From Spirochaetia bacterium (lineage in GTDB: Bacteria; Spirochaetota; Spirochaetia; CAKZLE01), in the NCBI GenBank assembly GCA_963677595.1, contig OY782041.1, forward strand, positions 1,568,001 to 1,632,000: a stretch of 64,000 nt of DNA. The letters run 5' to 3'. The notes under the pieces were generated by a model that saw only the letters and a program-made list of their open reading frames with translations, was not told the DNA's origin and searched no databases. The position numbers and the translations under genes are program-made. Shown one piece after another: positions 1 through 26,800 of this stretch (position 1 is its first letter; each line of letters begins with the position of its first letter).

Positions 1-1593
1 CTCCTTCTTCCTCATCGGGAAGGAAGAGAGGTACTGCGAGAGGGTCTCCTCACGATAGGTATCGATGCAGTCCGAGGTGAAGACCAGGGAGCCGAGCAGG
101 TTGTTCAGGAGGAAGAGGGTCTGTTTCTGTTCCGCAGTCAGGGAGGTGTTCTCATCCCTGAGGATGAACACGTCGGGATCATTGTTGAAGAACCGGTTGT
201 TGAGCTGTGCCCTGCCGATGGTGCTGACCAGGGAGTTGACCGTCGACACCCGTTCCTTGTACCGCACCATCTTCAGGCGCAGGTCCTCCCATCCCAGGGA
301 GACGTCGGATCCGATCCTGCAGTAGTCGACATAGCCGAAGGCCGCACCGAGCGGCACCCCGCAGCCGAGGATCCTCAGGGGTCCTGCGATCTCCCGGAGG
401 AACCGCATGGACTCGACCATGATCTGGCCCCGTGACCTCCCGTTCCTCGGGATGATCGCCTCGGCATAGAGGAAGTCGAGTTTCACCATGCGGAAGCCCC
501 AATCCGAGGAGATCATGTGGAAGACCTGCCGCAGGTACTCCCGTACGTCATGGTGGTAGATATCGAGCACATAGAAGTTCCCGCTCCAGTTGAACGGGTT
601 ATAGCCTGCGATGATGAACGATCCCTGCTCGTCACGTACCAGCCAGTCTGCATGCTTCTCACAGATGGTCGAGGACTCCTCGGCGACGAAGGGAGCCAGC
701 CAGAGTCCCGGGTCATACCCCTCTTTGCGTATCTTCGCCGCGACCGGCTTCATCCCGTCCGGGAAGGTGTTCTTGACCATGAGCCAGTCCCCGACAGCCT
801 GCTGCCACCCATCATCCACCTGGATATAGTCGATCGGGACCGACCGGCTGGAGAACGCCCTCACGTTCTCAAGGATGATCTCCGAAGAGATCTTCTCGTA
901 ATAGTTATACCAGCTCGTCCAGCCTACAGCCGGCGGGACCGGCTCGGAGTGTTTCCTGAACCCCCGCTCCCAGCTGCCATAACACGTCCCGGCAGACCCA
1001 GTAATGGAGAGAAGGGAGAGCAACTCGCTCTTCTGTGAGATGTGTGCCCCCTCGCACTCCTTGCGGACCACGATCTCGAAACCCTTCGTATCGACCTGGA
1101 AGATCGTGAACCCGTACTGTTCCGAGGTCGACCCGAGCAGGGTCATCGTCTCACTGGAGCCTGTCAGGCAGGTCCAGGTGTAGCTGCTGATCACCCCTTC
1201 CGGGGGCTGGGGGATGGACATATGCTCATCCCCGTAGGTACGCAGGTGATACTTCCTGATCCAGTGGTTGAACACCTTCGACATCTGTTTCTGCGTCTCA
1301 CGAGGAGTGTACTCGCGGGACTCCGTCCAGCTTTGGTACCCGTTGGAGAAGACCGAACCCACCGGCCCGTCATACGAGGCATAGAGGCTGCAGGAATGCA
1401 TGCTGAAGAGGATGTTCTTGTCGGGGATGAGGGTCACCCCTACCTGAAGCTCCCCGCCGGAAGCCCGTGAGGCCCTGCACTCGACCCTGCCGTGGGGGAT
1501 CGCCGATACGCCCTCGGCAGCGAAGCTCTTGTGGTAGAAGATCCCGTCCACATCGTATGATATGACTCCCTTCTTGATCGTGACCTCCGTCAT
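1..1593 (-). CDS. Alpha-galactosidase, glycoside hydrolase family 36 (3' end runs off the window)
   Basis: Not in the ORF track because it has no stop in the window. Manual translation from ATG 1593 (ATGA overlap with the lgt stop) gives GWTSWYNYY, IQVDDGWQ, GDW..FPDGMK, PGLWLAPF, KLDFLY and CRIGSD, all GH36/GH-D motifs. Confidence 0.85.
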   Translation of the reverse strand, partial: MTEVTIKKGVISYDVDGIFYHKSFAAEGVSAIPHGRVECRASRASGGELQVGVTLIPDKNILFSMHSCSLYASYDGPVGSVFSNGYQSWTESREYTPRETQKQMSKVFNHWIRKYHLRTYGDEHMSIPQPPEGVISSYTWTCLTGSSETMTLLGSTSEQYGFTIFQVDTKGFEIVVRKECEGAHISQKSELLSLLSITGSAGTCYGSWERGFRKHSEPVPPAVGWTSWYNYYEKISSEIILENVRAFSSRSVPIDYIQVDDGWQQAVGDWLMVKNTFPDGMKPVAAKIRKEGYDPGLWLAPFVAEESSTICEKHADWLVRDEQGSFIIAGYNPFNWSGNFYVLDIYHHDVREYLRQVFHMISSDWGFRMVKLDFLYAEAIIPRNGRSRGQIMVESMRFLREIAGPLRILGCGVPLGAAFGYVDYCRIGSDVSLGWEDLRLKMVRYKERVSTVNSLVSTIGRAQLNNRFFNNDPDVFILRDENTSLTAEQKQTLFLLNNLLGSLVFTSDCIDTYREETLSQYLSSFPMRKKE

Positions 1594-2543
1594 CTGCCTG
1601 CCCCGATCCGTGAACGTCTCCGAAGCAGGAGGATCATGAGCGTCCCGGCTATGACCATCAGGAGGCAGAGCAGCTGCCCCATCGAGAAGTTCAACGGGGA
1701 GAGGAAGAGTGCGGTCGGTTCCTGCTCGGCTCCCCAGGCCAGGGCAAAGCCCATATAGGAGTCAGGCTGCCGGAAATACTCGATGACGAACCTCACCAGC
1801 CCGTAGCCTATCAGGTAGATTCCCAGCAGCTGCCCGTGGAATCTCTTACGCTTCCGGAAGATGAACCAGAGCACGAGCCAGAGCACGATACCCTCGAAGA
1901 AGGCCTCATAGAGCTGGGAAGGGTGGCGTGGGAGGTTGACGAGGGACCCTTCCTGATACGGCATGCCGATCTCCTCACAGGTCTCGCGCACCCATGCGAG
2001 CCGGGTCGAGAAGGGTTCTGCGTAGGGGAATACCATACCCCATGACTTCGTCGTGACCCTTCCCCAGAGTTCAGCATTGAAGAAGTTGCCCAGGCGGCCG
2101 AAGGTATATCCAAGGGGGACGCCGAGGATGACCATGTCAGCGAGTTCCAGGAAACTGCGCTTGTACTTACGGGCGAAGAGCAGGCCGCCGACGGCGGCAC
2201 CGATCGCTCCCCCGTGGTAGCTCATCCCGCCGAGACCGGTGAACTTCCCGTCACGGAACGGCCAGAAGATCATCCACGGGTGCGTGATATAATAATGGGA
2301 AGGGTCGTAGACGGTCGTCGCGACGATCCGTGCCCCGATCAGCAGCCCGATGATGCACCAGAGCAGCAGGGAGACGATATCGTCGGTGGTAAGCCCCTTC
2401 TCGGGGGCCTTCCGGACCTGGTAAGCCAGGACCAGGTAGGTCGTCAGGAACGCCAGCACATACATCAGGCCGTACCAGCGGACTGGGAAGCCGGGGATGA
2501 TCTCAGGTGTGATCCAGGCAGGATACGGGATATAGGCAGTCAC
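1590..2543 (-). CDS. lgt: Prolipoprotein diacylglyceryl transferase
   Basis: VRWYGLMY, GGMSYHGG, GRLGNFFNAELWGR and RHPSQLYEA motifs. Confidence 0.97.
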   Translation of the reverse strand: MTAYIPYPAWITPEIIPGFPVRWYGLMYVLAFLTTYLVLAYQVRKAPEKGLTTDDIVSLLLWCIIGLLIGARIVATTVYDPSHYYITHPWMIFWPFRDGKFTGLGGMSYHGGAIGAAVGGLLFARKYKRSFLELADMVILGVPLGYTFGRLGNFFNAELWGRVTTKSWGMVFPYAEPFSTRLAWVRETCEEIGMPYQEGSLVNLPRHPSQLYEAFFEGIVLWLVLWFIFRKRKRFHGQLLGIYLIGYGLVRFVIEYFRQPDSYMGFALAWGAEQEPTALFLSPLNFSMGQLLCLLMVIAGTLMILLLRRRSRIGAGR

Positions 2544-2959
2544 ATGGTCCTCCTCACTGTTGGATGACTCTTCAGGGAGAGAAACTGCAAGGTCCCGAAG
2601 ACCAGGTCCAGCAGGATCACTCCCAGTATCACACAGAATCCGATGAATCCGAACGGGACCTGGTACCTGGCATAGAGCAGTGTCATGATCCCGATCAACC
2701 CTAGGATAACATAAAAACCACGGCTCATACAGAGCATTATCCCCAGCTGCCCAGCATGCTGGTCAAAGAGGAACAGCAGGTACCCTGCTACGACGACGGC
2801 TGCCGGGGCAAGGAGCCAGATCAGGTAGAAGGGGTGGACTGATTCGGAGAAGGTACTCACGAGCGTGCTGTTCACCCGCCACAGCAGGCCGATCCGGATG
2901 ATCTCCCAGATCAGGGCAGCGATTGTCACGATAAAACGGTTATTCCCTGGATGCATCAT
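2540..2959 (-). CDS. Hypothetical membrane protein (about 4 TM), coupled to lgt
   Basis: Hydrophobic ORF whose stop overlaps the lgt start. The ATG at 2959 lies 6 nt after TTGACC-N17-TACACT. Confidence 0.7.
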   Translation of the reverse strand: MMHPGNNRFIVTIAALIWEIIRIGLLWRVNSTLVSTFSESVHPFYLIWLLAPAAVVVAGYLLFLFDQHAGQLGIMLCMSRGFYVILGLIGIMTLLYARYQVPFGFIGFCVILGVILLDLVFGTLQFLSLKSHPTVRRTM

Positions 2960-3023
2960 ATTCAAAGTGTAAACAGCTCGTTCACGGTGGTCAATAGGAA
3001 CTTTTCTATAGTATATTGTGATT

Positions 3024-4433
3024 ATGAGAAAGCAATCCAGAATCTATATCGGCATCTTCGTCCTCGTACTGGCCGGGGTCCTCGGTTTCGGGGTATCCTG
3101 CGCCACGGACTCCCAGCTCGCCGCCGGGGAGGCGCCTGCCCTCGATGAGATCGATATCACGATGCAGCGGCTTGAGAGCCTCTACCGCACCATCGATTCA
3201 GAGTTCCTCTTCGAGGCAGACTCGGAGAAGATCTATGATGAGATGGCACGTGCCCTCTTCAAGGCCCTCGACGACCCCTATTCGGCATACATCACCGAGG
3301 AGGAGTCCCAGGAACTCACCGACCTCGCCTATGGCGCCTACGGCGGCATAGGGGCCTATATATCGAAACCGAACCCCGACACGATCGACCCGAAGGACCC
3401 CGAGACCTATATGGTCACTATTGTCTCCCCCTTCATCGGGTCACCAGCCTATCGTGCAGGGCTGCATGCAGGCGACCTGATCTCCGTCATCGACGGGGAG
3501 GATGTCACAGAACTGACCGTGGAGGAGTCATCAGCCCGACTGCGCGGGGAACCCGGCACGACCGTCACCCTGACCGTCCACCGGGGGAATGCCTCGTTCG
3601 ACTTGAGTTTCGAGCGGGAGATCGTCGAGATACCCACCGTCCAGTATGACATGATCGGGTATGTCGGCTATATCCACATCCTCGAGTTCACCCCCTATAC
3701 CCCCGACAAGGTCATCGAGGCCATGAACTCCTTCTCCAGGACAGGGTTCACTTCCCTGATCATCGACCTGAGGAGCAACCCCGGGGGAAGCGTCGAGGCA
3801 AGCCAGCAGATCGCTGACATGTTCCTCTCCGACAGGGAGGTCTTCACACTCGAGACGAACGATCCCGCCGATACAGCCGAGATCAGGACCCGGAAAGTCA
3901 CCTCGATCCCCGAGGACGTCCCCATCGTCCTGCTGATCGACGGGGGTTCGGCTTCCGCCGCGGAGATCCTTGCCGGCGCGATGAAGGACAATGGGCGGGC
4001 TGTGCTGATCGGCTCCACCTCCTTCGGGAAGGGGCTCGTACAGGGCGTCTATCCCTACGGGAACGACTACTTCAAGCTCACCTCGGCACGGTACCTGACC
4101 CCGAGCGGCGCCGACATCCACAAGATCGGGATCGAACCCGACATCCCCGTGGAACTCGAGGAGCTCACTGATGAACAGGTCGAGGACTACATCGCACTGC
4201 TCAACGATGATGTATTCGGGGACTTCGTTGCCGAACACCCGGAGGAGGACCAATCTGTATCGGATGCGTTCATCAAGTCACTGATCGACGGCGGGACCAG
4301 CCTTACCGAGCGATACCTCCAGAGGATCCTCAGGCTCGAGTACCAGTACCTCATGGATTTCCCGCCGGTATACGACCTGGATTTCGACACAGCCCTGAAC
4401 CGGGCACTGCACTACCTGGAAGAGGGGGAATGA
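3024..4433 (+). CDS. S41 carboxyl-terminal processing protease (CtpA/Prc-like, PDZ), probable lipoprotein
   Basis: LDDPYS, PDZ segment SPAYRAGLHAGD, DLRSNPGG, SASAAEI, SFGKG and GIEPD motifs; signal peptide ending GVSC. Confidence 0.92.
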   Translation: MRKQSRIYIGIFVLVLAGVLGFGVSCATDSQLAAGEAPALDEIDITMQRLESLYRTIDSEFLFEADSEKIYDEMARALFKALDDPYSAYITEEESQELTDLAYGAYGGIGAYISKPNPDTIDPKDPETYMVTIVSPFIGSPAYRAGLHAGDLISVIDGEDVTELTVEESSARLRGEPGTTVTLTVHRGNASFDLSFEREIVEIPTVQYDMIGYVGYIHILEFTPYTPDKVIEAMNSFSRTGFTSLIIDLRSNPGGSVEASQQIADMFLSDREVFTLETNDPADTAEIRTRKVTSIPEDVPIVLLIDGGSASAAEILAGAMKDNGRAVLIGSTSFGKGLVQGVYPYGNDYFKLTSARYLTPSGADIHKIGIEPDIPVELEELTDEQVEDYIALLNDDVFGDFVAEHPEEDQSVSDAFIKSLIDGGTSLTERYLQRILRLEYQYLMDFPPVYDLDFDTALNRALHYLEEGE

Positions 4434-4434
4434 C

Positions 4435-4830
4435 ATGATCAAATACCTGGACATACCGACGGACCGGCAGGTCTCCTTCATCGACATCACCGACAAAGTG
4501 AACTCGATCGTCTCTGCCTATGATATCACTGAGGGGACCTGCATAGTCTACTCCCCCCATACCACCTGCGGGGTCACGATAAACGAGAATGCCGACCCCG
4601 ATGTCAGGCGTGACATGATCCGCGAGCTCTCGCGGTTCGTCCCCTTCGAGGACGGCTACCGCCATATGGAGGGGAACTCCGCCGCCCATATCAAGGCAAG
4701 CCTCATGGGGTCCAGCGTCACCATCCCGATCTCCCAGGGGACCCTCCTGCTCGGCACATGGCAGGGGATCTACTTCTGCGAGTTCGACGGCCCGCGCAAG
4801 CGCCATATCACCATCCAGGTGATGCCGTAA
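4435..4830 (+). CDS. yjbQ: YjbQ/UPF0047 family protein
   Basis: PHTT, NENADPDV, HMEGNSAAHIK and LGTWQGIYFCEFDGPR motifs. Confidence 0.93.
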   Translation: MIKYLDIPTDRQVSFIDITDKVNSIVSAYDITEGTCIVYSPHTTCGVTINENADPDVRRDMIRELSRFVPFEDGYRHMEGNSAAHIKASLMGSSVTIPISQGTLLLGTWQGIYFCEFDGPRKRHITIQVMP

Positions 4831-4845
4831 CAGCAGGGAGGGATC

Positions 4846-5637
4846 ATGAGAGTATTCCTGCTGCCTGCAGGCTTCAGGGGTGAACGACACCTGGAACTGG
4901 AGGGGAAATCCTACCGCTACCTCATCAAGGTCCTCCGGCTGCGCGAAGGGGCGCAGTTCCCCGGCAGGGATGCACAGGGGAACCTGTGGGACCTCCTGCT
5001 GAACCGGATCGATACCGGGAAGAGGAGTTGTACCGTCACCTGTACCGAACACACACAAGCCATCGGCCATGGGGAGAACTCACTGCCCCCCCAGGAGGCC
5101 CTGCCCGAGATCCATCTCTACCAGTCGGTACTGAAGGGGAAGAAACTCGATACCCTGATCAGGCAGGCTGTCGAGATGGGAGTCTCACGTATCATACCGG
5201 TCCAGAGCGACTATTCAGTCCCTGACTATATGGGGAAGGAGGGAGCCTCGAGGATGAACCGATGGAAGGTTATTAGGGACGAGGCCCTGCAGCAGTGCGG
5301 CTCCCCCATCCTGACGGAGATCGCGGAGCCGATCAGGCTCTCCGGCATCCAGGATGACTGGGCCGGCCGCGGCCTGGGGGTCTTCTTCCACCAGGAGGAA
5401 CTCTCCCCAGTGACGCTGCAGGGTACCATCCAGGGATATGTGCAGCACACAGGCTCAATACCTGCTGTCGCCCTCGTGATCGGTCCCGAAGGTGGCCTCT
5501 CAGACGATGAGGTCGAATGCATGAAAAAAGCCGGTTTCAAACCGGCTTTCCTCAAGACTAATATACTCCGGGCTGAGACCGCGGCTCTCTATGCCACAGC
5601 CTGCACCCAGATGATCCTCACAGAACTGGAATCCTAG
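4846..5637 (+). CDS. rsmE: 16S rRNA m3U1498 methyltransferase
   Basis: VLRL, QAVEMGV, IGPEGGLS and ILRAETA SPOUT motifs. Confidence 0.93.
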   Translation: MRVFLLPAGFRGERHLELEGKSYRYLIKVLRLREGAQFPGRDAQGNLWDLLLNRIDTGKRSCTVTCTEHTQAIGHGENSLPPQEALPEIHLYQSVLKGKKLDTLIRQAVEMGVSRIIPVQSDYSVPDYMGKEGASRMNRWKVIRDEALQQCGSPILTEIAEPIRLSGIQDDWAGRGLGVFFHQEELSPVTLQGTIQGYVQHTGSIPAVALVIGPEGGLSDDEVECMKKAGFKPAFLKTNILRAETAALYATACTQMILTELES

Positions 5638-7877
5638 AAGAAGTTGAGGGCATCCAGCGAGTAGATGATCTTGTAGACTGCATCAGTCACATCGGAGAGG
5701 CCCTGCAGTACCTGCGTCCCTGCCGGGATCTTGATCTTATCGATGACGAAGATGACATCACCCGGTTCCAGGATCTCCTTCTCGATACTCTCCGTATTCC
5801 AGAAATAGACCGTATCCTTGATGACCCGTCCGGTATGCTTGATGATCGAAATATCATAGTCACGCGCCCGCAGGCCGCCGAGTTCCATCAGGTACTCACG
5901 TATCGTCTTTCCTTCCCGCCACGGCAGTGCGATGGTCGAATCGACATCCCCGAGGATGGAGACGTAGTCCGAACGTTTCGGCACATAGATATAGTCACCC
6001 TCACTGAGGAGGATGTCGTCGGAGGAGGTCGCGAACTCCGCAGCATCTGCGGGCAGTTCCAGGGCAATCCTCCCGAGGAGGTCCCCCTGGTTCTCCATGG
6101 CTGACTCGAGGAGGGTCCGCTGGCCGGCAATCTGGGCCTTGACCAGGTTCTTCTCATCAGCAGAGAGGTCCTCCTGGATCGCAAGGGAAGCCTCGAGGGC
6201 ATCGAGGTCGCTCTGCGTCACGGCGATCCGCTTCTTCAGCTGCTTGAGCTGCTCGTCCTGGATCGACTTCCGGATGAGCACGAGTGCCTGCGGGTATGCC
6301 TGGTCGGTGAACCAGCCGGCATCCTCGAGCACATCAGAGAGGCGCACGCCCTTCGCGTAGGGATAGATCCCGGGGGTGTTCACCTGCCCGAGCACCTGGA
6401 TCCCGAGTGAGAGGTTCGCGTGCTCCTTCTCTACCGCCACGATCATATCGCCGGAGGCAAGTGGTACGTTCTGGGCCGTGTTGCCCGACACATAGAGGTC
6501 GAACAGGTCGACATAGGCGGCAACCACTTCATCCCGGACGATCCGCAGCTCGATGGCAGCGAAGTCCTCGGTGAACTCGACGTCATTGATCACGTCCAGC
6601 ACGGTCAACCCCTCACGGTAGGGAATGACCTCAGCCTCTGAGACCAGTCCCGTGAGCTTCACGGGGTCTACCATGAACCGCTTCTTAGCCGTATAGATCG
6701 TGATCTCATCGTACTGCTGCAGCGGTATATCCTCAGCACTCCCGTCAAGGATGGCCTTCGGGGAGAAGACGATCCCGTCATTCTCATACTCGGCGCTGTC
6801 CCTGAACAGGGTCGCGAATTCCATGTCGGCATTGTACCTGAGCTCTACCCGCTTAAGCAGTTCCGAGACGGTATCAGAGTTCTTGTTGATATCGAAGATC
6901 CCGGGATAGAGGACCGCCCCGCTCACCTTCACGATGTTCGAGGAGACGGTATTGCTCGGCGAGAGCAGGATCAGGTCCCCGTCAGCGAGAAACCGGTCCT
7001 GGATATCGCGGATGTTGGAAGAGGTCTCGACGATCCGGACCTGTTTCCCGTCCTGCTGGATCAGTCGTGCTGAGAGGGCGGCCCCTGCCACCTGCAGCCC
7101 GCCGGCATACTCGAGCAGGTCGTTCACCGTCTCGCCATGAATCATCTCATAGATGCCGGGCCTCTTCACCTGCCCGGTGATGGCACACGATTTCGATACA
7201 GCCGGGACGTTGATGACATCCCCCTCCTGCATCTTCATATCGATCGGTACCCCATCCTGGAACAGGTCATAGAGATCGACCAGGGTGATCTTGCCGTCCC
7301 TTCGCAGCTCGATCCTTCGGAGGGAGCCTTCCGGAGCGATGCCCCCGGCATAGCCGAGGGTCTCCACGATCGACCAGAGGCTGTTGATCGTGACAAGCCC
7401 GGGCCTGTTCACGAAGCCGGTGACATAGATCGTGAAATCATGCAGCTTCGTCAGTGCGACATCGACGGATATATTGTTGTACTTATAGTTCAGGATCTCA
7501 TTGAGGGTCTTCTCGATCTCCGCCAGGGTCCTGCCGTAGGCAGAGATCCGGCCCGCAGGAGCAAGGAACAGTCCCCCGTCCAGATTGACCGTAACCTCAT
7601 AGAGCCCTTCGATGGTCCCGATCTCCACTGAGTCGCCCCAGATGTAGATCCGCAGCTCATCCCCGGGATTCACCGCGTAATCCTTGTCGATAAGGATAGA
7701 GTGAACCGGTACGGTTTCGGAGAGCAGGTCATACCCGTATTGCCTGAGGTCTTCAGCTCCCTCGATCCCGAGACGTCCAAAAGCCTGTTCCGTGGTGGAG
7801 AGACCTGCGGTTTCCGCAGATACCATACCCATCGAACAGAGCAGCAGTAGGCTTATGCCAATCAGTATCTTTCTCAT
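5634..7877 (-). CDS. SLBB-repeat polysaccharide export protein (Wza/KpsD-like)
   Basis: Signal peptide; Poly_export domain (Y.VNPGDEL.I.IWG); repeated SLBB motifs GFVNRPG, GQVKRPGIY, GAVLYPGIF and GQVNTPGIY. Confidence 0.88.
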   Translation of the reverse strand: MRKILIGISLLLLCSMGMVSAETAGLSTTEQAFGRLGIEGAEDLRQYGYDLLSETVPVHSILIDKDYAVNPGDELRIYIWGDSVEIGTIEGLYEVTVNLDGGLFLAPAGRISAYGRTLAEIEKTLNEILNYKYNNISVDVALTKLHDFTIYVTGFVNRPGLVTINSLWSIVETLGYAGGIAPEGSLRRIELRRDGKITLVDLYDLFQDGVPIDMKMQEGDVINVPAVSKSCAITGQVKRPGIYEMIHGETVNDLLEYAGGLQVAGAALSARLIQQDGKQVRIVETSSNIRDIQDRFLADGDLILLSPSNTVSSNIVKVSGAVLYPGIFDINKNSDTVSELLKRVELRYNADMEFATLFRDSAEYENDGIVFSPKAILDGSAEDIPLQQYDEITIYTAKKRFMVDPVKLTGLVSEAEVIPYREGLTVLDVINDVEFTEDFAAIELRIVRDEVVAAYVDLFDLYVSGNTAQNVPLASGDMIVAVEKEHANLSLGIQVLGQVNTPGIYPYAKGVRLSDVLEDAGWFTDQAYPQALVLIRKSIQDEQLKQLKKRIAVTQSDLDALEASLAIQEDLSADEKNLVKAQIAGQRTLLESAMENQGDLLGRIALELPADAAEFATSSDDILLSEGDYIYVPKRSDYVSILGDVDSTIALPWREGKTIREYLMELGGLRARDYDISIIKHTGRVIKDTVYFWNTESIEKEILEPGDVIFVIDKIKIPAGTQVLQGLSDVTDAVYKIIYSLDALNFF

Positions 7878-7880
7878 AGC

Positions 7881-8178
7881 ATTATATTGTATAGGTTCAA
7901 GACCATTGTTTCAATAACGAATCAACCATGAACCCATGAAATAAAGCTACCCTATTATGTCAGGTATTTTTCTATATGTGGAGCAAGAGAAGATATCTGA
8001 GATAGGGTATTCACAAATCCATCATTGTGGCTTATGATGGTTTGAAATGAGGGAAATTCATCCAAAGGATTTCATTTTTGCAAACATTGTTTTACTTCGG
8101 AAGCAACGAACGTATGTACGAACATCTGCTTGAAGATCCTCAGATCCACATCCTGAGATTCGAGACAGCCACAGACCT
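7881..8178. repeat. Left copy of a 298-bp direct repeat (long target-site duplication of the IS)
   Basis: ATTATATTGTATAGG...CCACAGACCT recurs at 10223-10520 with 7 substitutions and no indels. Confidence 0.95.
7886..7914 (-). promoter_or_regulatory. Sigma70-type promoter of the SLBB gene (duplicated at 10228-10256)
   Basis: TTGAAA-N17-TACAAT, 8 nt before ATG 7877, with no SD sequence. Confidence 0.6.
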
Positions 8179-10222
8179 CCGGACTTTGACAGGTCCCCAG
8201 CTATCAGCCACCCCTCAATCCCACCAATTATCCTGCTCCCAGCTATCTGCGGCATAGATTCCGGACAGCATTTTTTTCATATAAGAAACACATATCTGTC
8301 GACTTATGTAGAGACATATGCTATACTACTACCATAGGAGGATCCTATGTTTGTAAAACGGAACACCTACAAGACCGGCCGCACCAGTATCTCCATCTCC
8401 AAGTCCTATCGTGACGAACAAGGAAAGTCCAAGTCCCGTGTCATCAAGGGCCTCGGCTATTATGATGTGCTAGAGCGCGAACACGATGACCCCGAGGCAT
8501 TCATTCAATCTGTACTTGAACGCGCGGAACAGGAGGAAGCTCTTGAACAGGTTGTTACCAGCCTCCCCATCCACATGAATGAGAAGCTCACCGCTGAGGA
8601 TGCAAAGCAGATCTATAATTTCGGCTCTGCTGCCTTCAGCTACTTCTACCATCTCCTTGAACTCGATTATGTAATCAATAACCGCAGACGGTACACAAAG
8701 GCCGAATACAACCATAATGCGATCCTGAAAATGCTCGTCTACTCCCAACTGATCAATCCAGGCTCCAAGAAAGCATCCTTTGAAAAGAAACACCAATTCT
8801 TTGACAAGATGGATTTCTCCCTTGAGGATGTCTATCGCTCTCTTGATTTCTTTAAAACCCATTCTGATGCGATCGTGCATGCACTCGATGCCCGTATTGA
8901 GCAGGTCTTCGGCAGAGACAAATCTGTGTTTTACTATGATGTGACCAACTACTATTTTGAGATTGACCGCGAGGATGATTTTCGCATTCGGGGACCTTCC
9001 AAAGAATTTCGTCCGCTTCCCATTGTCCAGCTGGGTCTGTTCCTTGATGCACAGGGACTTCCCCTTTCGTTCAAACTCTTCGAAGGGAACACCCACGATT
9101 CAAAAACCTTCTTCGATTCGTTTTCTGATGTCAATTCCACCTTCCGTCCGAAGGACCAGCGAGTCGTGGTTGTTGCCGATAACGGGATGTTCAGTGGAGA
9201 CAATATTCGTCAGGTCCTGCTCAACAAACAAGGCTTCATTGTTGCCTATTCCCTGAAGAAGGGTACTGATGCACTGAAGAAGTTCGCCTTCGATACCTCC
9301 GGCTACTCATTTGTGGATACCGTAACAGACCCCAAGACCGGTAAGCTCTTCAAGCAGATACGGCCATGGAATCCCAAGCATACGTATGCGGATGAGGTGG
9401 TGCGATTCAAGGAGATCATTACCCCCTACGAGATCCACGTCTCTTCATTGGAAGGGAAGAAGACCTCCGTGAAGCTTGATACGGTCAAGATCGTAGTCAG
9501 CTATTCCCCGAAGTATGCTGCCAAAGCGAAAGAGGAGCGGGCTAAGATCATTGAGAAGCTACAGAAGCGCATTGCTTCCGGACGGGTGATTGGCTCAAAT
9601 GATGTTCGCAAGTATATTGCTACCACCTCATTCTCTAAGGAGAGTGGGGAAGAGGTAGATGTGGAACAACTCCTGGCGATTGATGAGGAGAAACTTGCTC
9701 GTGATGCCCAGTTTGATGGACTTCATGCGATTTTCACTACCGAGCTTGATCTGCCGGCCAGCCAGGTTGTCAGGAAGTATCGTGGGCTATGGGAGATTGA
9801 GGAGACCTTCCGCATCTCAAAAAAGGATTTGAAAACCAGGCCGGTCTTCGTATCCACGCTCAATCACATCAAGGCACATTTCTTGATAAGCTTTCTGGCC
9901 TTGACCATTCTGCGGTTACTGGAGAAACAGATCGGTGAAGTCTTTACTACTTCCGAGATTCTAAACGCCTTACGAGAGTCAAAGGCTTATTACCTTGGGG
10001 ACAACATTTACCGGTTCTACCATACCGATCCCTGCTTAGAAGCTATTGGGAAGGCTACAGGCATTGATTTCAGCCGGAAGTATATGACCAAGGCTGAGAT
10101 CAGAAAAACTTTCGCCGCAACAAAAAAATTCGAGAATTAGACCACATATTTGTGTGCTGAGAAATGGCGGTTTAATTCATATAGGGTAATACTTTATAAA
10201 ATTTTATGCTGCCAAAGACAGG
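8179..10222 (+). mobile_element. IS1634-family insertion sequence (2044 bp)
   Basis: Imperfect 14-bp terminal IRs: CCGGACTTTGACAG (8179-8192) versus the reverse complement of CTGCCAAAGACAGG (10209-10222), 11/14 match. They abut the 298-bp repeats exactly. One transposase ORF; lower GC than the flanks. Confidence 0.92.
8347..10140 (+). CDS. IS1634-family DDE transposase
   Basis: 597 aa with YYDVTNYYFE, GPSKEFRP..IVQLGL, VVADNG and YRGLWEIEETFR..K..L..RP motifs; SD AGGAGG upstream. Confidence 0.93.
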   Translation: MFVKRNTYKTGRTSISISKSYRDEQGKSKSRVIKGLGYYDVLEREHDDPEAFIQSVLERAEQEEALEQVVTSLPIHMNEKLTAEDAKQIYNFGSAAFSYFYHLLELDYVINNRRRYTKAEYNHNAILKMLVYSQLINPGSKKASFEKKHQFFDKMDFSLEDVYRSLDFFKTHSDAIVHALDARIEQVFGRDKSVFYYDVTNYYFEIDREDDFRIRGPSKEFRPLPIVQLGLFLDAQGLPLSFKLFEGNTHDSKTFFDSFSDVNSTFRPKDQRVVVVADNGMFSGDNIRQVLLNKQGFIVAYSLKKGTDALKKFAFDTSGYSFVDTVTDPKTGKLFKQIRPWNPKHTYADEVVRFKEIITPYEIHVSSLEGKKTSVKLDTVKIVVSYSPKYAAKAKEERAKIIEKLQKRIASGRVIGSNDVRKYIATTSFSKESGEEVDVEQLLAIDEEKLARDAQFDGLHAIFTTELDLPASQVVRKYRGLWEIEETFRISKKDLKTRPVFVSTLNHIKAHFLISFLALTILRLLEKQIGEVFTTSEILNALRESKAYYLGDNIYRFYHTDPCLEAIGKATGIDFSRKYMTKAEIRKTFAATKKFEN

Positions 10223-10520
10223 ATTATATTGTATAGGTTCAAGACCATTGTTTCAATAACGAATCAACCATGAACCCATGAAATAAAGCTACCCTATTAT
10301 GTCAGGTATTTTTCTATATGTGGAGCAAGAGAAGATATCTGAGATAGGGTATTCACAAATCCATCCTTGTGGCTTATGATAGTTTGGAATGAGGGAAATT
10401 CATCCAAAGGATTTCATTTTTGCAAACATTGTTTTACTTCGGAACCAACGAGCGTATGTACGAACACCTGCTTGAAGACCCTCAGATCCACATCCTGAGA
10501 TTCGAGACAGCCACAGACCT
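10223..10520. repeat. Right copy of the 298-bp direct repeat; includes the first 33 codons of the sigma54 activator gene
   Basis: Direct comparison with 7881-8178. Confidence 0.95.
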
Positions 10521-11550
10521 GATCAAGAAAGCCGGCCGCACCAGGCTTGACGGCATCATGGTAGATGAGAAAGAGGTCGACACGGACCGGTTCATGGAGG
10601 AGCTTACCAGTTCCGGCTGCCATGGGCCATTCCTTTTCCTGAAGACTCAGGTAATCACCATGGTCAGGGACATCAAGGACCGCTCAAGGAAGATACTGTT
10701 CATAGACTATTCGACCGTGACCGACTCCATACTGCAGTTCATCAGCGCCTGCAGGGAGGCCGAGGCTGCCAACTTCAGGGGGTATGAGATCCCCCTCGTC
10801 GGGAGTTCCAGGGAGATGATGGAAGTCAAGGAGCTCGTCAGCTCGTATGTCGCATCCCCTGACCCGGTCTTCATCATCGGGGAGTCCGGTACGGGCAAGG
10901 GCATCATCGCGAGGAGTCTCCATGAGTGCTCCGGCTGCACCGGGGCATTCCAGAATCTCAACTGCTCATCGATACAGGGAAACCTCTTCGAGTCCGAGAT
11001 GTTCGGCCATACGAAAGGGTCCTTCACCGGGGCAGTCGGGGACAGGAAGGGCCTCCTCGAGACCGCGCAGGATGGGACAGTCTTCCTTGATGAGATCGGG
11101 GATCTTCCCATGGACCAGCAGCCGAAACTCCTGAAGGCGATAGAGGAGAAGCAGTTCCGCAAGGTCGGCTCCTCCAAGATGATCGATTACAATGCCAGGT
11201 TCGTCAGTGCGACGAACAAGAAGAACGTCAGCAAGGAGAAGTTCCGGCAGGACCTGTACTTCAGGATCAGTACCCTGTCCGTCAGCATCCCCCCCCTCCG
11301 GGACCATGTCGATGACATTCCCGAACTCGTCCATCATCTCTTGCGGATAAAACATCCCCAGTTCACGATCTCCGAGGTATCCTATCGCACCCTCATGGAG
11401 TATGACTGGCCGGGGAACGTACGCCAGCTGGGAGCCTGCCTTGATTTCTTCTGCAACCAGTTCTACTCGACGAAGGTACTCTCAATCAACACGGCATGGT
11501 TCGACACCTACCTCACGAGAATAGTCAAGGGCTTCTTCGAAGATATATGA
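10420..11550 (+). CDS. Sigma54-interacting AAA+ activator (bEBP) with degenerate receiver domain and no evident C-terminal HTH
   Basis: Walker A GESGTGKG, ESEMFGH.KGSFTGA, Walker B FLDEIGD, FRQDLYFR and WPGNVRQL. The protein ends about 40 aa after sensor II. TTG start. Confidence 0.88.
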   Translation: MQTLFYFGTNERMYEHLLEDPQIHILRFETATDLIKKAGRTRLDGIMVDEKEVDTDRFMEELTSSGCHGPFLFLKTQVITMVRDIKDRSRKILFIDYSTVTDSILQFISACREAEAANFRGYEIPLVGSSREMMEVKELVSSYVASPDPVFIIGESGTGKGIIARSLHECSGCTGAFQNLNCSSIQGNLFESEMFGHTKGSFTGAVGDRKGLLETAQDGTVFLDEIGDLPMDQQPKLLKAIEEKQFRKVGSSKMIDYNARFVSATNKKNVSKEKFRQDLYFRISTLSVSIPPLRDHVDDIPELVHHLLRIKHPQFTISEVSYRTLMEYDWPGNVRQLGACLDFFCNQFYSTKVLSINTAWFDTYLTRIVKGFFEDI

Positions 11551-11554
11551 GACC

Positions 11555-12199
11555 ATGAGAGAACACTATAGTGACTACATCATCATCTCGTTCTGCAGGT
11601 GTTCGCTGGAGGAACGGCTTTCCATCGAACGGAACCTGGGACCCTACCCGGACCTGGAGCTGAACTTCACGGACACCTGCGATCTCGAGGATGACTGTGA
11701 TCTCTATATATTACCAAGCAGAGAGCTCCTGGCACTGTCCAGGAGCCGCATCCTCGAGAGCGGGATCCCGATCATCGCATTCGGGTTCGTGAATCAGATC
11801 CATACGGCCTTCTCCTACCATGTCAGGGACTTCATCACCTACCCCTTCTCGGAAGCTGAGATGTTCGAGCGCATCACCAAGCATGCAGCACGGTCCTTCT
11901 GTTTCCAGAAAGACGAGTTCTTCAGCTTCTCGAGGAGCAGGCTCATCTACAAGGATTCCTCTATCCCGATCTCGCTGACGGAATACTTCTACCTCTCCTG
12001 CCTGACCAAGGCCGGAGGCAACCCGGTATCACGGGAACTCCTCGGGAAAGGCTCGAACATGAAGATCGGCAAGGATAGCCGGACCCCTGATAACATCATC
12101 TCCCATATCAGGAAGAAGTTCAGGCAATTGCTGCCGATCGACCGGAACCTGATCAAACCCGTGCGGGGCGTCGGCTACCGATTGGAGAGAATATCCTGA
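11555..12199 (+). CDS. OmpR/PhoB-type winged-helix regulator with degenerate receiver domain
   Basis: C-terminal VSRELL..DSRTPDNIISHIRKK..IKPVRGVGYRL. The N-terminus has DFITYPF where DYIxKPF is expected. Confidence 0.8.
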   Translation: MREHYSDYIIISFCRCSLEERLSIERNLGPYPDLELNFTDTCDLEDDCDLYILPSRELLALSRSRILESGIPIIAFGFVNQIHTAFSYHVRDFITYPFSEAEMFERITKHAARSFCFQKDEFFSFSRSRLIYKDSSIPISLTEYFYLSCLTKAGGNPVSRELLGKGSNMKIGKDSRTPDNIISHIRKKFRQLLPIDRNLIKPVRGVGYRLERIS

Positions 12200-12222
12200 T
12201 TTCACCCCTTTTCGGAACAACC

Positions 12223-12454
12223 TGTGGATAACTTGTGAAAAACTTCTGGTTTTCCTGAATTTTCGATGGAAAAATTAAAAAAATTTACACGCAGAATCTC
12301 TTGTGTTGCAGACGTATTTTTAATTCCTTTTGTTGTAAATAATTAAAAGCTGTTGGTGTAAAATTTACATATTTTTTGATAAAAATGCTTGACAAGAAAT
12401 ACGATGACTAAGAAATCCACAGGTTTGCATAACTTGTGGATAACTTGTGAAGAA
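12223..12454. promoter_or_regulatory. DnaA-box cluster flanking an AT-rich spacer
   Basis: Perfect TGTGGATAA at 12223 and 12435; near-boxes TGTGAAAAA 12234, AAATCCACA 12413, TTTGCATAA 12424 and TGTGAAGAA 12446. Confidence 0.75.
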
Positions 12455-24368: not shown

Positions 24369-25444
24369 TCGTTCTCCAACACTCCTTCTGATACCCGGTA
24401 TGTCATGGTATCAGAATCATGCTCCCTGAAATAGGATTCCTTGGGCAGGAATGTGAAAAAAGCCTGGTCATAGTCAGATATATGCTCGAGGAAACGCTCC
24501 CGTTTCTCAAGGTCAAGCTCAAGGAGAACATCATCAAGGAGCAGGATCGGCTTCTCGTCCCGCTCCCTGCAGTAGAGGATGGACTGTACCAGCTTCAGCA
24601 CGAGGGAAGCGAGCCGTATCTGTCCCGTAGAGGCTGTCGCTATGAAATCCCTCCCGTCCTGACTGAATAGGAACTTATCCCGATGCGGTCCCGTGGTCGT
24701 CAGTTCATATCGCCGGTCACGTTCATGGTTCTTCTCTATGAGCGTGACCGCATCCTCCTCAGTAATACACCCTTTCCAGGATGGGCTGTATACTAAACTG
24801 ACCGCATCGGGATTGCAGGAGATCTTCCGGTACAGCTCCGGGAAATACTCATTGAAGGCCTCTATGTTCTGCCTTCTCTTTTCCTGTATCTTCATGCCGG
24901 TATCTGCGAGCTTCCGGTCATAGATCGTCAGCAGGGAATCGCTCCCACCCTTCAGCAGCGCGTTACGCTGCTTCACGATGCTGTTATAGAGGCGTATAAG
25001 GTCTATATAGTCATTGTCGAGCAATGATATGCTCTGGTCGAAGAACTTCCTCTGCATGAGGGGAGCTCCTTTGACGAACTCCATATCCTCATGCGAGAAG
25101 ATGATGCAGGTACTGATCGAGAGGAGCTCCTTCCGGTCTGTGATCTCCCTCCCATCAATGAAGGTCCGCCGCTTACCGTCCTTGAACACGACCTTCACCG
25201 TGTAATCCCTGCCGTCCTTCCCGATGACAGCGATGACGGAGAGCTCCTGTTCCCCAAAGCTCACGATCTGCTTCTGCAGCCGCGTGCGGAAGGAGGAACC
25301 ATAAGAGACAAAGTAGATCGCCTCGATGAAATTTGATTTACCCTGCCCGTTCTCCCCGATCAGCACGATGTGCTTATGGGAGACAGGGAGGAGTAGATCA
25401 GCAAGGTTCCTGAAATGGTATGTCCTCAGCGATTTGATGACCAT
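24365..25444 (-). CDS. recF: DNA replication and repair protein RecF
   Basis: GENGQGKSN, SFRT, GPHRD, STGQ and LLLDDVLLELD motifs. Confidence 0.97.
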   Translation of the reverse strand: MVIKSLRTYHFRNLADLLLPVSHKHIVLIGENGQGKSNFIEAIYFVSYGSSFRTRLQKQIVSFGEQELSVIAVIGKDGRDYTVKVVFKDGKRRTFIDGREITDRKELLSISTCIIFSHEDMEFVKGAPLMQRKFFDQSISLLDNDYIDLIRLYNSIVKQRNALLKGGSDSLLTIYDRKLADTGMKIQEKRRQNIEAFNEYFPELYRKISCNPDAVSLVYSPSWKGCITEEDAVTLIEKNHERDRRYELTTTGPHRDKFLFSQDGRDFIATASTGQIRLASLVLKLVQSILYCRERDEKPILLLDDVLLELDLEKRERFLEHISDYDQAFFTFLPKESYFREHDSDTMTYRVSEGVLENE

Positions 25445-26564: not shown

Positions 26565-26800
26565 ACTACAGTCTATATATTATTAATTAGTAGTAGTAGT
26601 AGTAATAGGGCCTGTGGACAATGTGCATAACTAAACTATGTTTAAACAGTAGAATGAAATAATCAAAAATTCAGTTGTGCATAACTCTGTTTTTTTATCC
26701 ACAGTTCATCAACATATTAACAACTATACCATATTATCCACAATTTATTGATAAAAATCCACAACTTATCTATATGTTATCAAGAGGTTATCAACAACCC
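26565..26800. other. Chromosomal replication origin oriC
   Basis: dnaA-dnaN intergenic. AT-rich segment, then (TAG)5-TAA-TAG trios 26588-26608, GGCC, tandem boxes TGTGGACAA 26613 and TGTGCATAA 26622. Further boxes at 26676, 26695 (TTATCCACA), 26706, 26734 (TTATCCACA), 26755 and 26788. Confidence 0.92.

Follow-up and report, generated by a model that had tools for sequence, protein, structure and literature searches.

Two alleles in the long target duplication of an IS1634-family element: a likely footprint of strain-to-strain recombination

Some insertion sequences, among them IS1634 of Mycoplasma mycoides and IS1549 of Mycobacterium smegmatis, are flanked by long direct repeats whose length varies from copy to copy, with 8-514 bp reported; according to PMC2266710, no mechanism for these repeats had been proposed as of 2008. 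As described there, such elements typically measure 1,500-2,000 bp, end in C-----YT and encode a large DDE transposase without the arginine of the YREK motif (PMC2266710). Long direct repeats, sometimes imperfect, also bound the inserts described by Furuta, Kobayashi and colleagues, where they frequently include the start or stop of translation, so that the target gene survives intact (PMC2853133). For restriction-modification genes of this kind, release and re-entry via the repeats have been hypothesised, the re-entry step being unproven in Furuta et al. 2010 (PMC2853133). Finally, natural transformation with homologous recombination can bring in elements together with their flanks (PMC3410848, PMC12359135); the tracts leave mosaic junctions, and such cases need no long duplication.

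The locus considered here lies in a stretch of 64,000 nucleotides (the window; G000:C1:1568001-1632000) of a Spirochaetia assembly that consists of one contig of 4.33 Mb (completeness 95.4, contamination 6.28%), and consists of an IS1634-family element between two copies of a 298-bp direct repeat (Table 1). A single large DDE transposase ORF passes the NF033559 IS1634 transposase family model; D198, D278 and E485 were assigned from motif context, and the YREK motif, located by motif spacing and not by alignment, likewise lacks its arginine (Y478-(2)-L481-(3)-E485-(6)-K492). The C-----YT terminal signature is present with imperfect inverted repeats (CCGGACTT and CCTGTCTT). At 2,044 bp the element is slightly longer than the listed range (PMC2266710), the relatives we surveyed measuring ~1.9-2.3 kb. 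A second copy, 99.8% identical, resides at G000:C1:757087-759134 on the minus strand within a perfect 94-bp repeat, so that direct repeats here also vary between copies (298 and 94 bp). Two further points differ from the IS1634/IS1549 description: repeats of the surveyed relatives reach 707 bp, and the repeat copies at this locus bear different alleles over part of their length. It departs from the Furuta/Kobayashi inserts as well, since those were chosen for lacking mobile-element genes (PMC2853133), whereas the insert at this locus is itself an IS, encodes an intact transposase and recurs elsewhere in the genome.

Table 1. Features of the locus, in window coordinates
Feature	Position	Strand	Remarks
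Polysaccharide-export / SLBB-domain gene, 747 aa	5634..7877	-	starts 4 bp left of R1; undamaged by insertion
Stretch nearly identical to the relative	7574..8144		putative recombination tract; left edge approximate
Left copy R1, 298-bp target duplication	7881..8178	+	divergent-promoter region and first 33 activator codons; allele 'A'
Sigma-70-like site TTCACA-17-TATGAT	8010..8038	+	consensus match only
Block with all 7 copy differences	8024..8137	+	counterpart 10366-10479
Orphan activator start in left copy	8078..8257	+	frame enters IS end, stops after 59 codons
IS1634-family element, 2,044 bp	8179..10222	+	ends CCGGACTTTG / CCTGTCTTTG
Intact 597-aa DDE transposase	8347..10140	+	NF033559 327.5 bits (cut-off 100); PF01609
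Right copy R2	10223..10520	+	promoter region and intact activator's start; allele 'B' at positions 144-257
Sigma-54-interaction (AAA+) activator-like gene, 376 aa, TTG start	10420..11550	+	PF00158 E=2.6e-53; orthologue starts

The repeat spans the intergenic region between the polysaccharide-export gene and the activator gene together with the first 33 activator codons, and the duplication leaves the upstream regions of both flanking genes intact. Compared base by base at an offset of 2342, its copies are identical at positions 1-143, carry seven substitutions within the following 114 bp and are identical again over the final 41 bp, in agreement with a previous sequence-only reading that had placed all seven in the last 155 bp. 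The substitutions (left/right) are 8024/10366 A/C, 8039/10381 G/A, 8045/10387 A/G, 8103/10445 G/C, 8110/10452 A/G, 8125/10467 T/C and 8137/10479 T/C. Three are non-coding, and the codon check returned the same effects for the other four as had been described, namely one Ser/Thr change (AGC/ACC, residue 9) and three synonymous changes (GAA/GAG, residue 11; CAT/CAC, 16; GAT/GAC, 20). All four activator-part sites are taken as coding because orthologues in genomes G001 and G003 begin at the place matching 10420, which supports the TTG start. The copies thus differ by 2.3%, and with seven differences in 298 bp this pair is an outlier, far above the other 34 pairs described below when these are pooled (19 in 7,375 bp, 0.26%; Poisson p=1.6e-5). 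Calculated post hoc, the chance is p=0.010 that all seven fall in the last 155 bp, p=0.015 that they fall inside a 114-bp span, and p=0.03-0.07 that at least three of the four coding changes are synonymous. The direction of GC change was set aside as a sign of the native allele, since a shift towards A/T in the left allele at 5/6 changes is too weak.

Are long repeats themselves exceptional? We pooled seven loci of this genome with 95 loci of at least 3 kb among L026-L160, three duplicates of our own loci being omitted, and removed those without a transposase match or with a duplicate junction. Of the 81 that were left, 37 have a flanking repeat and 44 have none that was found, many of the latter being cut by contig ends or drawn from overlapping stretches. 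Two of the 37 (L054 and L037) were excluded for ends unlike IS ends, and overshoot was trimmed by hand in nine, which gives 35 repeat-flanked loci with repeats of 35-707 bp, perfect at 24/35. In the genome under study, perfect repeats occur at 4/7 loci. A second IS1634 family there is represented by five copies that show no difference over 1,599 bp; their repeats measure 577, 707, 128, 564 and 213 bp and are perfect in three cases. Because 24/35 pairs are perfect and the element's own second copy has a perfect repeat, long repeats are apparently the normal product of this subgroup. A search of chiefly open-access literature listed no paper on diverged copies of IS1634 long repeats.

The same survey yielded some observations on the repeats and the elements as such. 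Imperfect repeats also occur at G000:C1:589005-591418 (1 mismatch in 128 bp) and 2572738-2575322 (3 mismatches and 1 indel in 213 bp), both in the second family with its identical copies. The repeat end that adjoins the right end of the IS is strongly A/T-rich by raw count, with A or T at positions 1, 2, 3, 5 and 6 in 29-33 of the 35 loci (G000 and L026-L130) and a consensus near TTATAT, while repeat length varies 20-fold. This suggests that one IS end might pick a defined target and the other be joined at a variable distance, which offers a lead on the mechanism of the long repeats. The two copies of the element itself differ at 4 places in 2,048 bp (0.2%), three of them within 23 bp near the left end of the second copy and one changing H76P in its transposase.

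Sequences bearing on the origin of the mismatch come from three public runs that contain the stretch, of which X1 and X2 derive from one sample of a separate study. X3, whose share of the stretch is 0.93, is possibly the sample behind the assembly, and the eight X3 pieces listed (of 50) show no differences from the window. X1 and X2 contain a related strain that is ~95% alike to the window overall and 1-8% divergent in most of the pieces listed (8/55 and 8/33 shown); it is known from this one independent sample, at a contig depth of 5-7. Conspecific alleles were also sought by a DNA search of 41 genomes, where the matches outside G000 reach only 64-82%. In metagenome contigs, activator N-terminus relatives gave 130 pattern matches with none confirmed, and a 22-base repeat pattern gave no match, both among records from which near-identical ones are possibly omitted. 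A joint between 11169 and 11406 was set aside, its contig having a depth of 177 and only 25 letters on the short side.

The related strain has an activator allele without interruption, and this allele carries the left-copy letter at 7/7 sites. Starting in the upstream flank, the strain's contigs cross the repeat and continue past its end into the gene up to 10618, with no IS junction listed, so that in X1 an empty site with a single repeat reads upstream, repeat, gene. Gap-free pieces (10367-10618, 10605-10790 and 10768-11799) span the whole activator ORF, and none of the relative's 16 coding differences up to 10790 creates a stop, differences beyond that point being only partly shown. The sequence-only reading had proposed that the two copies are different alleles, to be recognised by the left haplotype in full-length activator genes of other strains; this is what the X1/X2 relative provides, and since all seven left letters occur in its uninterrupted gene, the left copy represents an allele and not decay. 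The proposed bias towards synonymous changes proves a weak mark of a functional allele. Among the 11 other activator codons up to 10790 that differ between window and relative, 8/11 changes are non-synonymous and 3/11 synonymous (Fisher p=0.24 against 3/4 between the copies), and because this N-terminal region is evidently so loosely constrained, three synonymous changes in four are not diagnostic. The other repeat pairs offer approximately three usable coding mismatches, too few to weigh such a bias across pairs.

The relative also reveals a mosaic. Within 7574-8144 the window differs from it at 1 position in 571 bp, compared to 33 in the 587 bp immediately to the left (Fisher p=3e-9), with the phase across this stretch being assumed from two contigs that overlap by 12 bases only. 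The near-identity reaches ~300 bp beyond the repeat on its left side, 7574-7880 containing 1 difference. Within the left copy, differences from the relative number 0/264 and then 4/34 (p=1e-4), a minority letter at repeat position 143 in one X1 contig being the exception to 0/264; along the right copy and its downstream sequence they number 0/143 and then 16/217 (p=3e-4). Abrupt switches of this sort are typical of recombination tracts. At the last 4 sites (of 34), both repeat copies agree against the relative. A shared near-identical stretch is not unique, because patches of about 1% divergence occur elsewhere between window and relative (4/362 and 3/297).

How might a duplication of a kind that is mostly perfect come to hold two alleles? 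The mismatch likely stems from ordinary strain-to-strain recombination beside a resident element, and not from a new way of moving. We envision, in what we regard as a somewhat better than even account, that the element would have transposed in by means of its own transposase and made the 298-bp duplication, and that a homologous-recombination tract from an IS-free relative would later have overwritten one of the copies in part, without displacing the element. Given that the homology of an IS-free donor would stop at the IS, a breakpoint would be left inside a repeat copy. Two versions, whose probabilities are our judgements, differ in the order of events and in the copy overwritten, both of which we infer. 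In version (a), which we prefer and consider quite conceivable though short of even, allele A with the relative-shared tract (~7574-8144) was duplicated exactly and IS-free B then replaced the right copy. The crossover would fall within that copy's first 143 bp, and their identity is explained by its lying there; this version requires two recombination events. In version (b), somewhat unlikely in our view, the duplicated allele was B, and the upstream flank together with left-copy positions 1-264 later gave way to a relative-type tract. This requires zero differences in 143 bp between two lineages (p=0.001 at 4.5% divergence, 0.06 at 2%). As for the means of exchange, ComEC-type and DprA-type genes are present in the genome and would indicate a capacity for uptake at most; genes of this competence type are widespread, exceeding the cut-off in 10/14 control genomes per search.

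Alternatively, allele B may not belong to this chromosome at all. True chromosomes could be A-IS-A throughout, with the B letters of a co-sampled IS-free strain having won the right-copy consensus, and although we consider such a chimera unlikely, part of the evidence fits it. The B letters are known from the assembly alone and occur in no X1, X2 or X3 contig, and in X3 the repeat forms one unchanged 298-bp contig that has the left letters at both variant clusters. The contigs of these runs come from a simplified graph, as described in PMC12424806, so B has possibly been removed from the X3 contigs; such removal cannot be assumed, because at 10365 X1 retained a single-base bubble of nearly balanced depths (2.2 and 2.7). 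Absence of B from contigs is in any case not absence from reads. The contamination score and the terminal overlap of the assembly, with its indels and its divergent block (see below), point in the same direction. Depth argues to the contrary. The collapsed repeat in X3 has a depth of 73.6, compared to the 87.8 that its four neighbouring contigs predict if the copies are identical and the 66-70 predicted if they are two alleles whose bubbles were removed, and in simulations the probability of so low a depth with identical copies is at most 0.075 in 3/4 calibrations. Neighbouring depths are 44.9 upstream, 38.6 from repeat to IS, 41.4 from IS to repeat and 50.6 downstream; comparing junctions with flanks leaves at most ~1/5 of chromosomes IS-free, a share too small to dominate a consensus. 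If single-copy depth is set down to 40, as in the fourth calibration, identical copies remain compatible with the data (P=0.07-0.18), and depth therefore leans only modestly to two real alleles, the outcome depending on the single-copy depth chosen. The difference-free X3 pieces also speak against a chimera, as do the five identical copies of the second IS family, which indicate that repeats in this assembly are not generally noisy.

The terminal overlap deserves description in its own right. Positions 1-11881 and 4313508-4325376 of G000:C1 are an untrimmed overlap of 11.9 kb, whose first copy shows scattered single-base indels to ~5.7 kb. A 3.5-kb block within it contains ~170 substitutions (~5% divergent), with 126 synonymous and 22 non-synonymous in four ORFs, and the next 8 kb contain one. 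A second, divergent haplotype is included in the assembly away from the IS locus, and may add to the contamination score. Because the assembly ends differ by ~170 mostly synonymous substitutions, divergent alleles were apparently present in the source material.

A third possibility is the one that the sequence-only reading had suggested, that the IS itself arrived by homologous recombination. An A-IS-A haplotype would have entered an IS-free B chromosome by double crossover without transposase, with one crossover left of ~7574 and another within the first 143 bp of the repeat. The sequence expected from this is precisely the one observed, the identity of the first 143 bp included, and the left letters do belong to a real allele. 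Transformation followed by homologous recombination can introduce mobile elements along with their flanks (PMC3410848). Moreover, IS pieces of 527, 81 and 95 bp in X1 and X2 match the element without differences, which implies recent movement between lineages or samples by some route. On the other hand, the exchange needs a tract of at least 2.6 kb that carries 2.3 kb of non-homologous DNA. The import of such large non-homologous tracts is less efficient than marker replacement. The element also encodes an intact transposase, and its second copy is perfectly flanked; in the two other species considered in PMC12359135 at most 24.8% and 7.7% of gene gains are linked to recombination. Nor is a long repeat necessary as an arm, any flanks being sufficient. 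Long repeats would be the elements' own product and a tract from an IS-free strain gives the same junction, so that we regard arrival by recombination as distinctly unlikely, and equally doubt the broader notion that long-repeat IS1634 elements use their duplication as a homology arm to spread, transposase-free, into the empty alleles of related strains. The direction of transfer is unreadable from one junction, because version (a) and the import of the IS leave the same local sequence, and one junction is what has been seen, no conspecific being found among 41 genomes and metagenome contigs.

Two observations on the element in other samples may be added. X3 has a single IS contig, which matches the window's copy. 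One X1 contig departs from the IS sequence at window position ~9344 and continues into at least 255 bases of unrelated DNA; it appears to be a truncated or interrupted IS copy in the other sample.

The remaining explanations fare worse. Drift would entail an old insertion whose copies accumulated point mutations, those in the functional right copy being screened by selection; that the relative sides with the left copy at 7/7 sites, as if the changes had arisen on the right, and that 3/4 coding changes are synonymous would both suit it. It would, however, require that all seven changes struck one copy and spared both the unselected copy and the first 143 bp, and it has to reconcile 4 differences in 2,048 bp between IS copies with 2.3% between repeats, and the 0.26% pooled rate of the other pairs, all of which makes it very unlikely. 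Still less credible is Campbell integration of an IS-plus-repeat circle into a single empty site with a crossover in the first 143 bp, a route that the sequence-only reading had also entertained. Such integration should leave reciprocally mosaic copies that are identical near the crossover, and it has a counterpart in the release and re-entry hypothesised for long-repeat-flanked elements (Furuta et al., PMC2853133). Donor-type sequence should then stay within the repeats and the insert, whereas the near-identity to the relative continues ~300 bp further left; the three runs list no joined or circular form, among contigs that drop rare forms. We give as little credence to a single event in which the transposase hit a heteroduplex recombination intermediate and the copies were filled from strands of different alleles, which would make R1 relative-type and R2 resident-type at once and draws on the want of any long-repeat mechanism proposed as of 2008 (PMC2266710), but demands that two rare events coincide, still needs 0 differences in 143 bp and finds such targets not to be the rule, 24/35 pairs being perfect.

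What does the locus mean if recombination beside a resident element is the correct account? It has the look of a genuine footprint of recombination, left in a long target duplication of a known type. Such a duplication can keep two alleles side by side and thus preserve a breakpoint of recombination inside a single genome. Copies that mismatch are unfit for dating an insertion and no proof that the element moved. Were recombination through the repeat nevertheless the route of entry, the long repeat would be a homing device and the mismatched copies its footprint, which would assign a function to a long-unexplained feature and imply transposase-free spread, a conclusion for which this locus alone is insufficient. 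Even then this would be a case of an element being taken up along with its flanks, a process already described (PMC3410848, PMC12359135); the repeat would be the recorder of the breakpoint and not a requirement.

Several features of the surroundings merit mention. The hexamers of the sigma-70-like site recur at 10352-10380 in the right copy, and the three non-coding differences spare both; four such sites were found where shuffles lead one to expect 2.0. The left site (8010-8038, plus strand) precedes the left end of the IS and is oriented into the transposase gene, and could conceivably cause read-through transcription of the element. Matches of the activator-like protein to sigma-54 activator models stop at about residue 350 of 376, and no C-terminal helix-turn-helix was detected in it by Pfam. 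A winged-helix regulator gene (11555-12199) directly follows, an order common to G001, G002 and G003. The minimum of GC skew lies at about window position 25,365, among ORFs that by eye resemble recF, dnaN, dnaA and gyrB, and the element is thus likely situated ~15 kb from the replication origin. Perfect matches to what we take to be the DnaA-box consensus, 9-mers at 12223, 12435, 26695 and 26734 (window 12219-12454 and 26695-26742), account for 4/10 in the genome.
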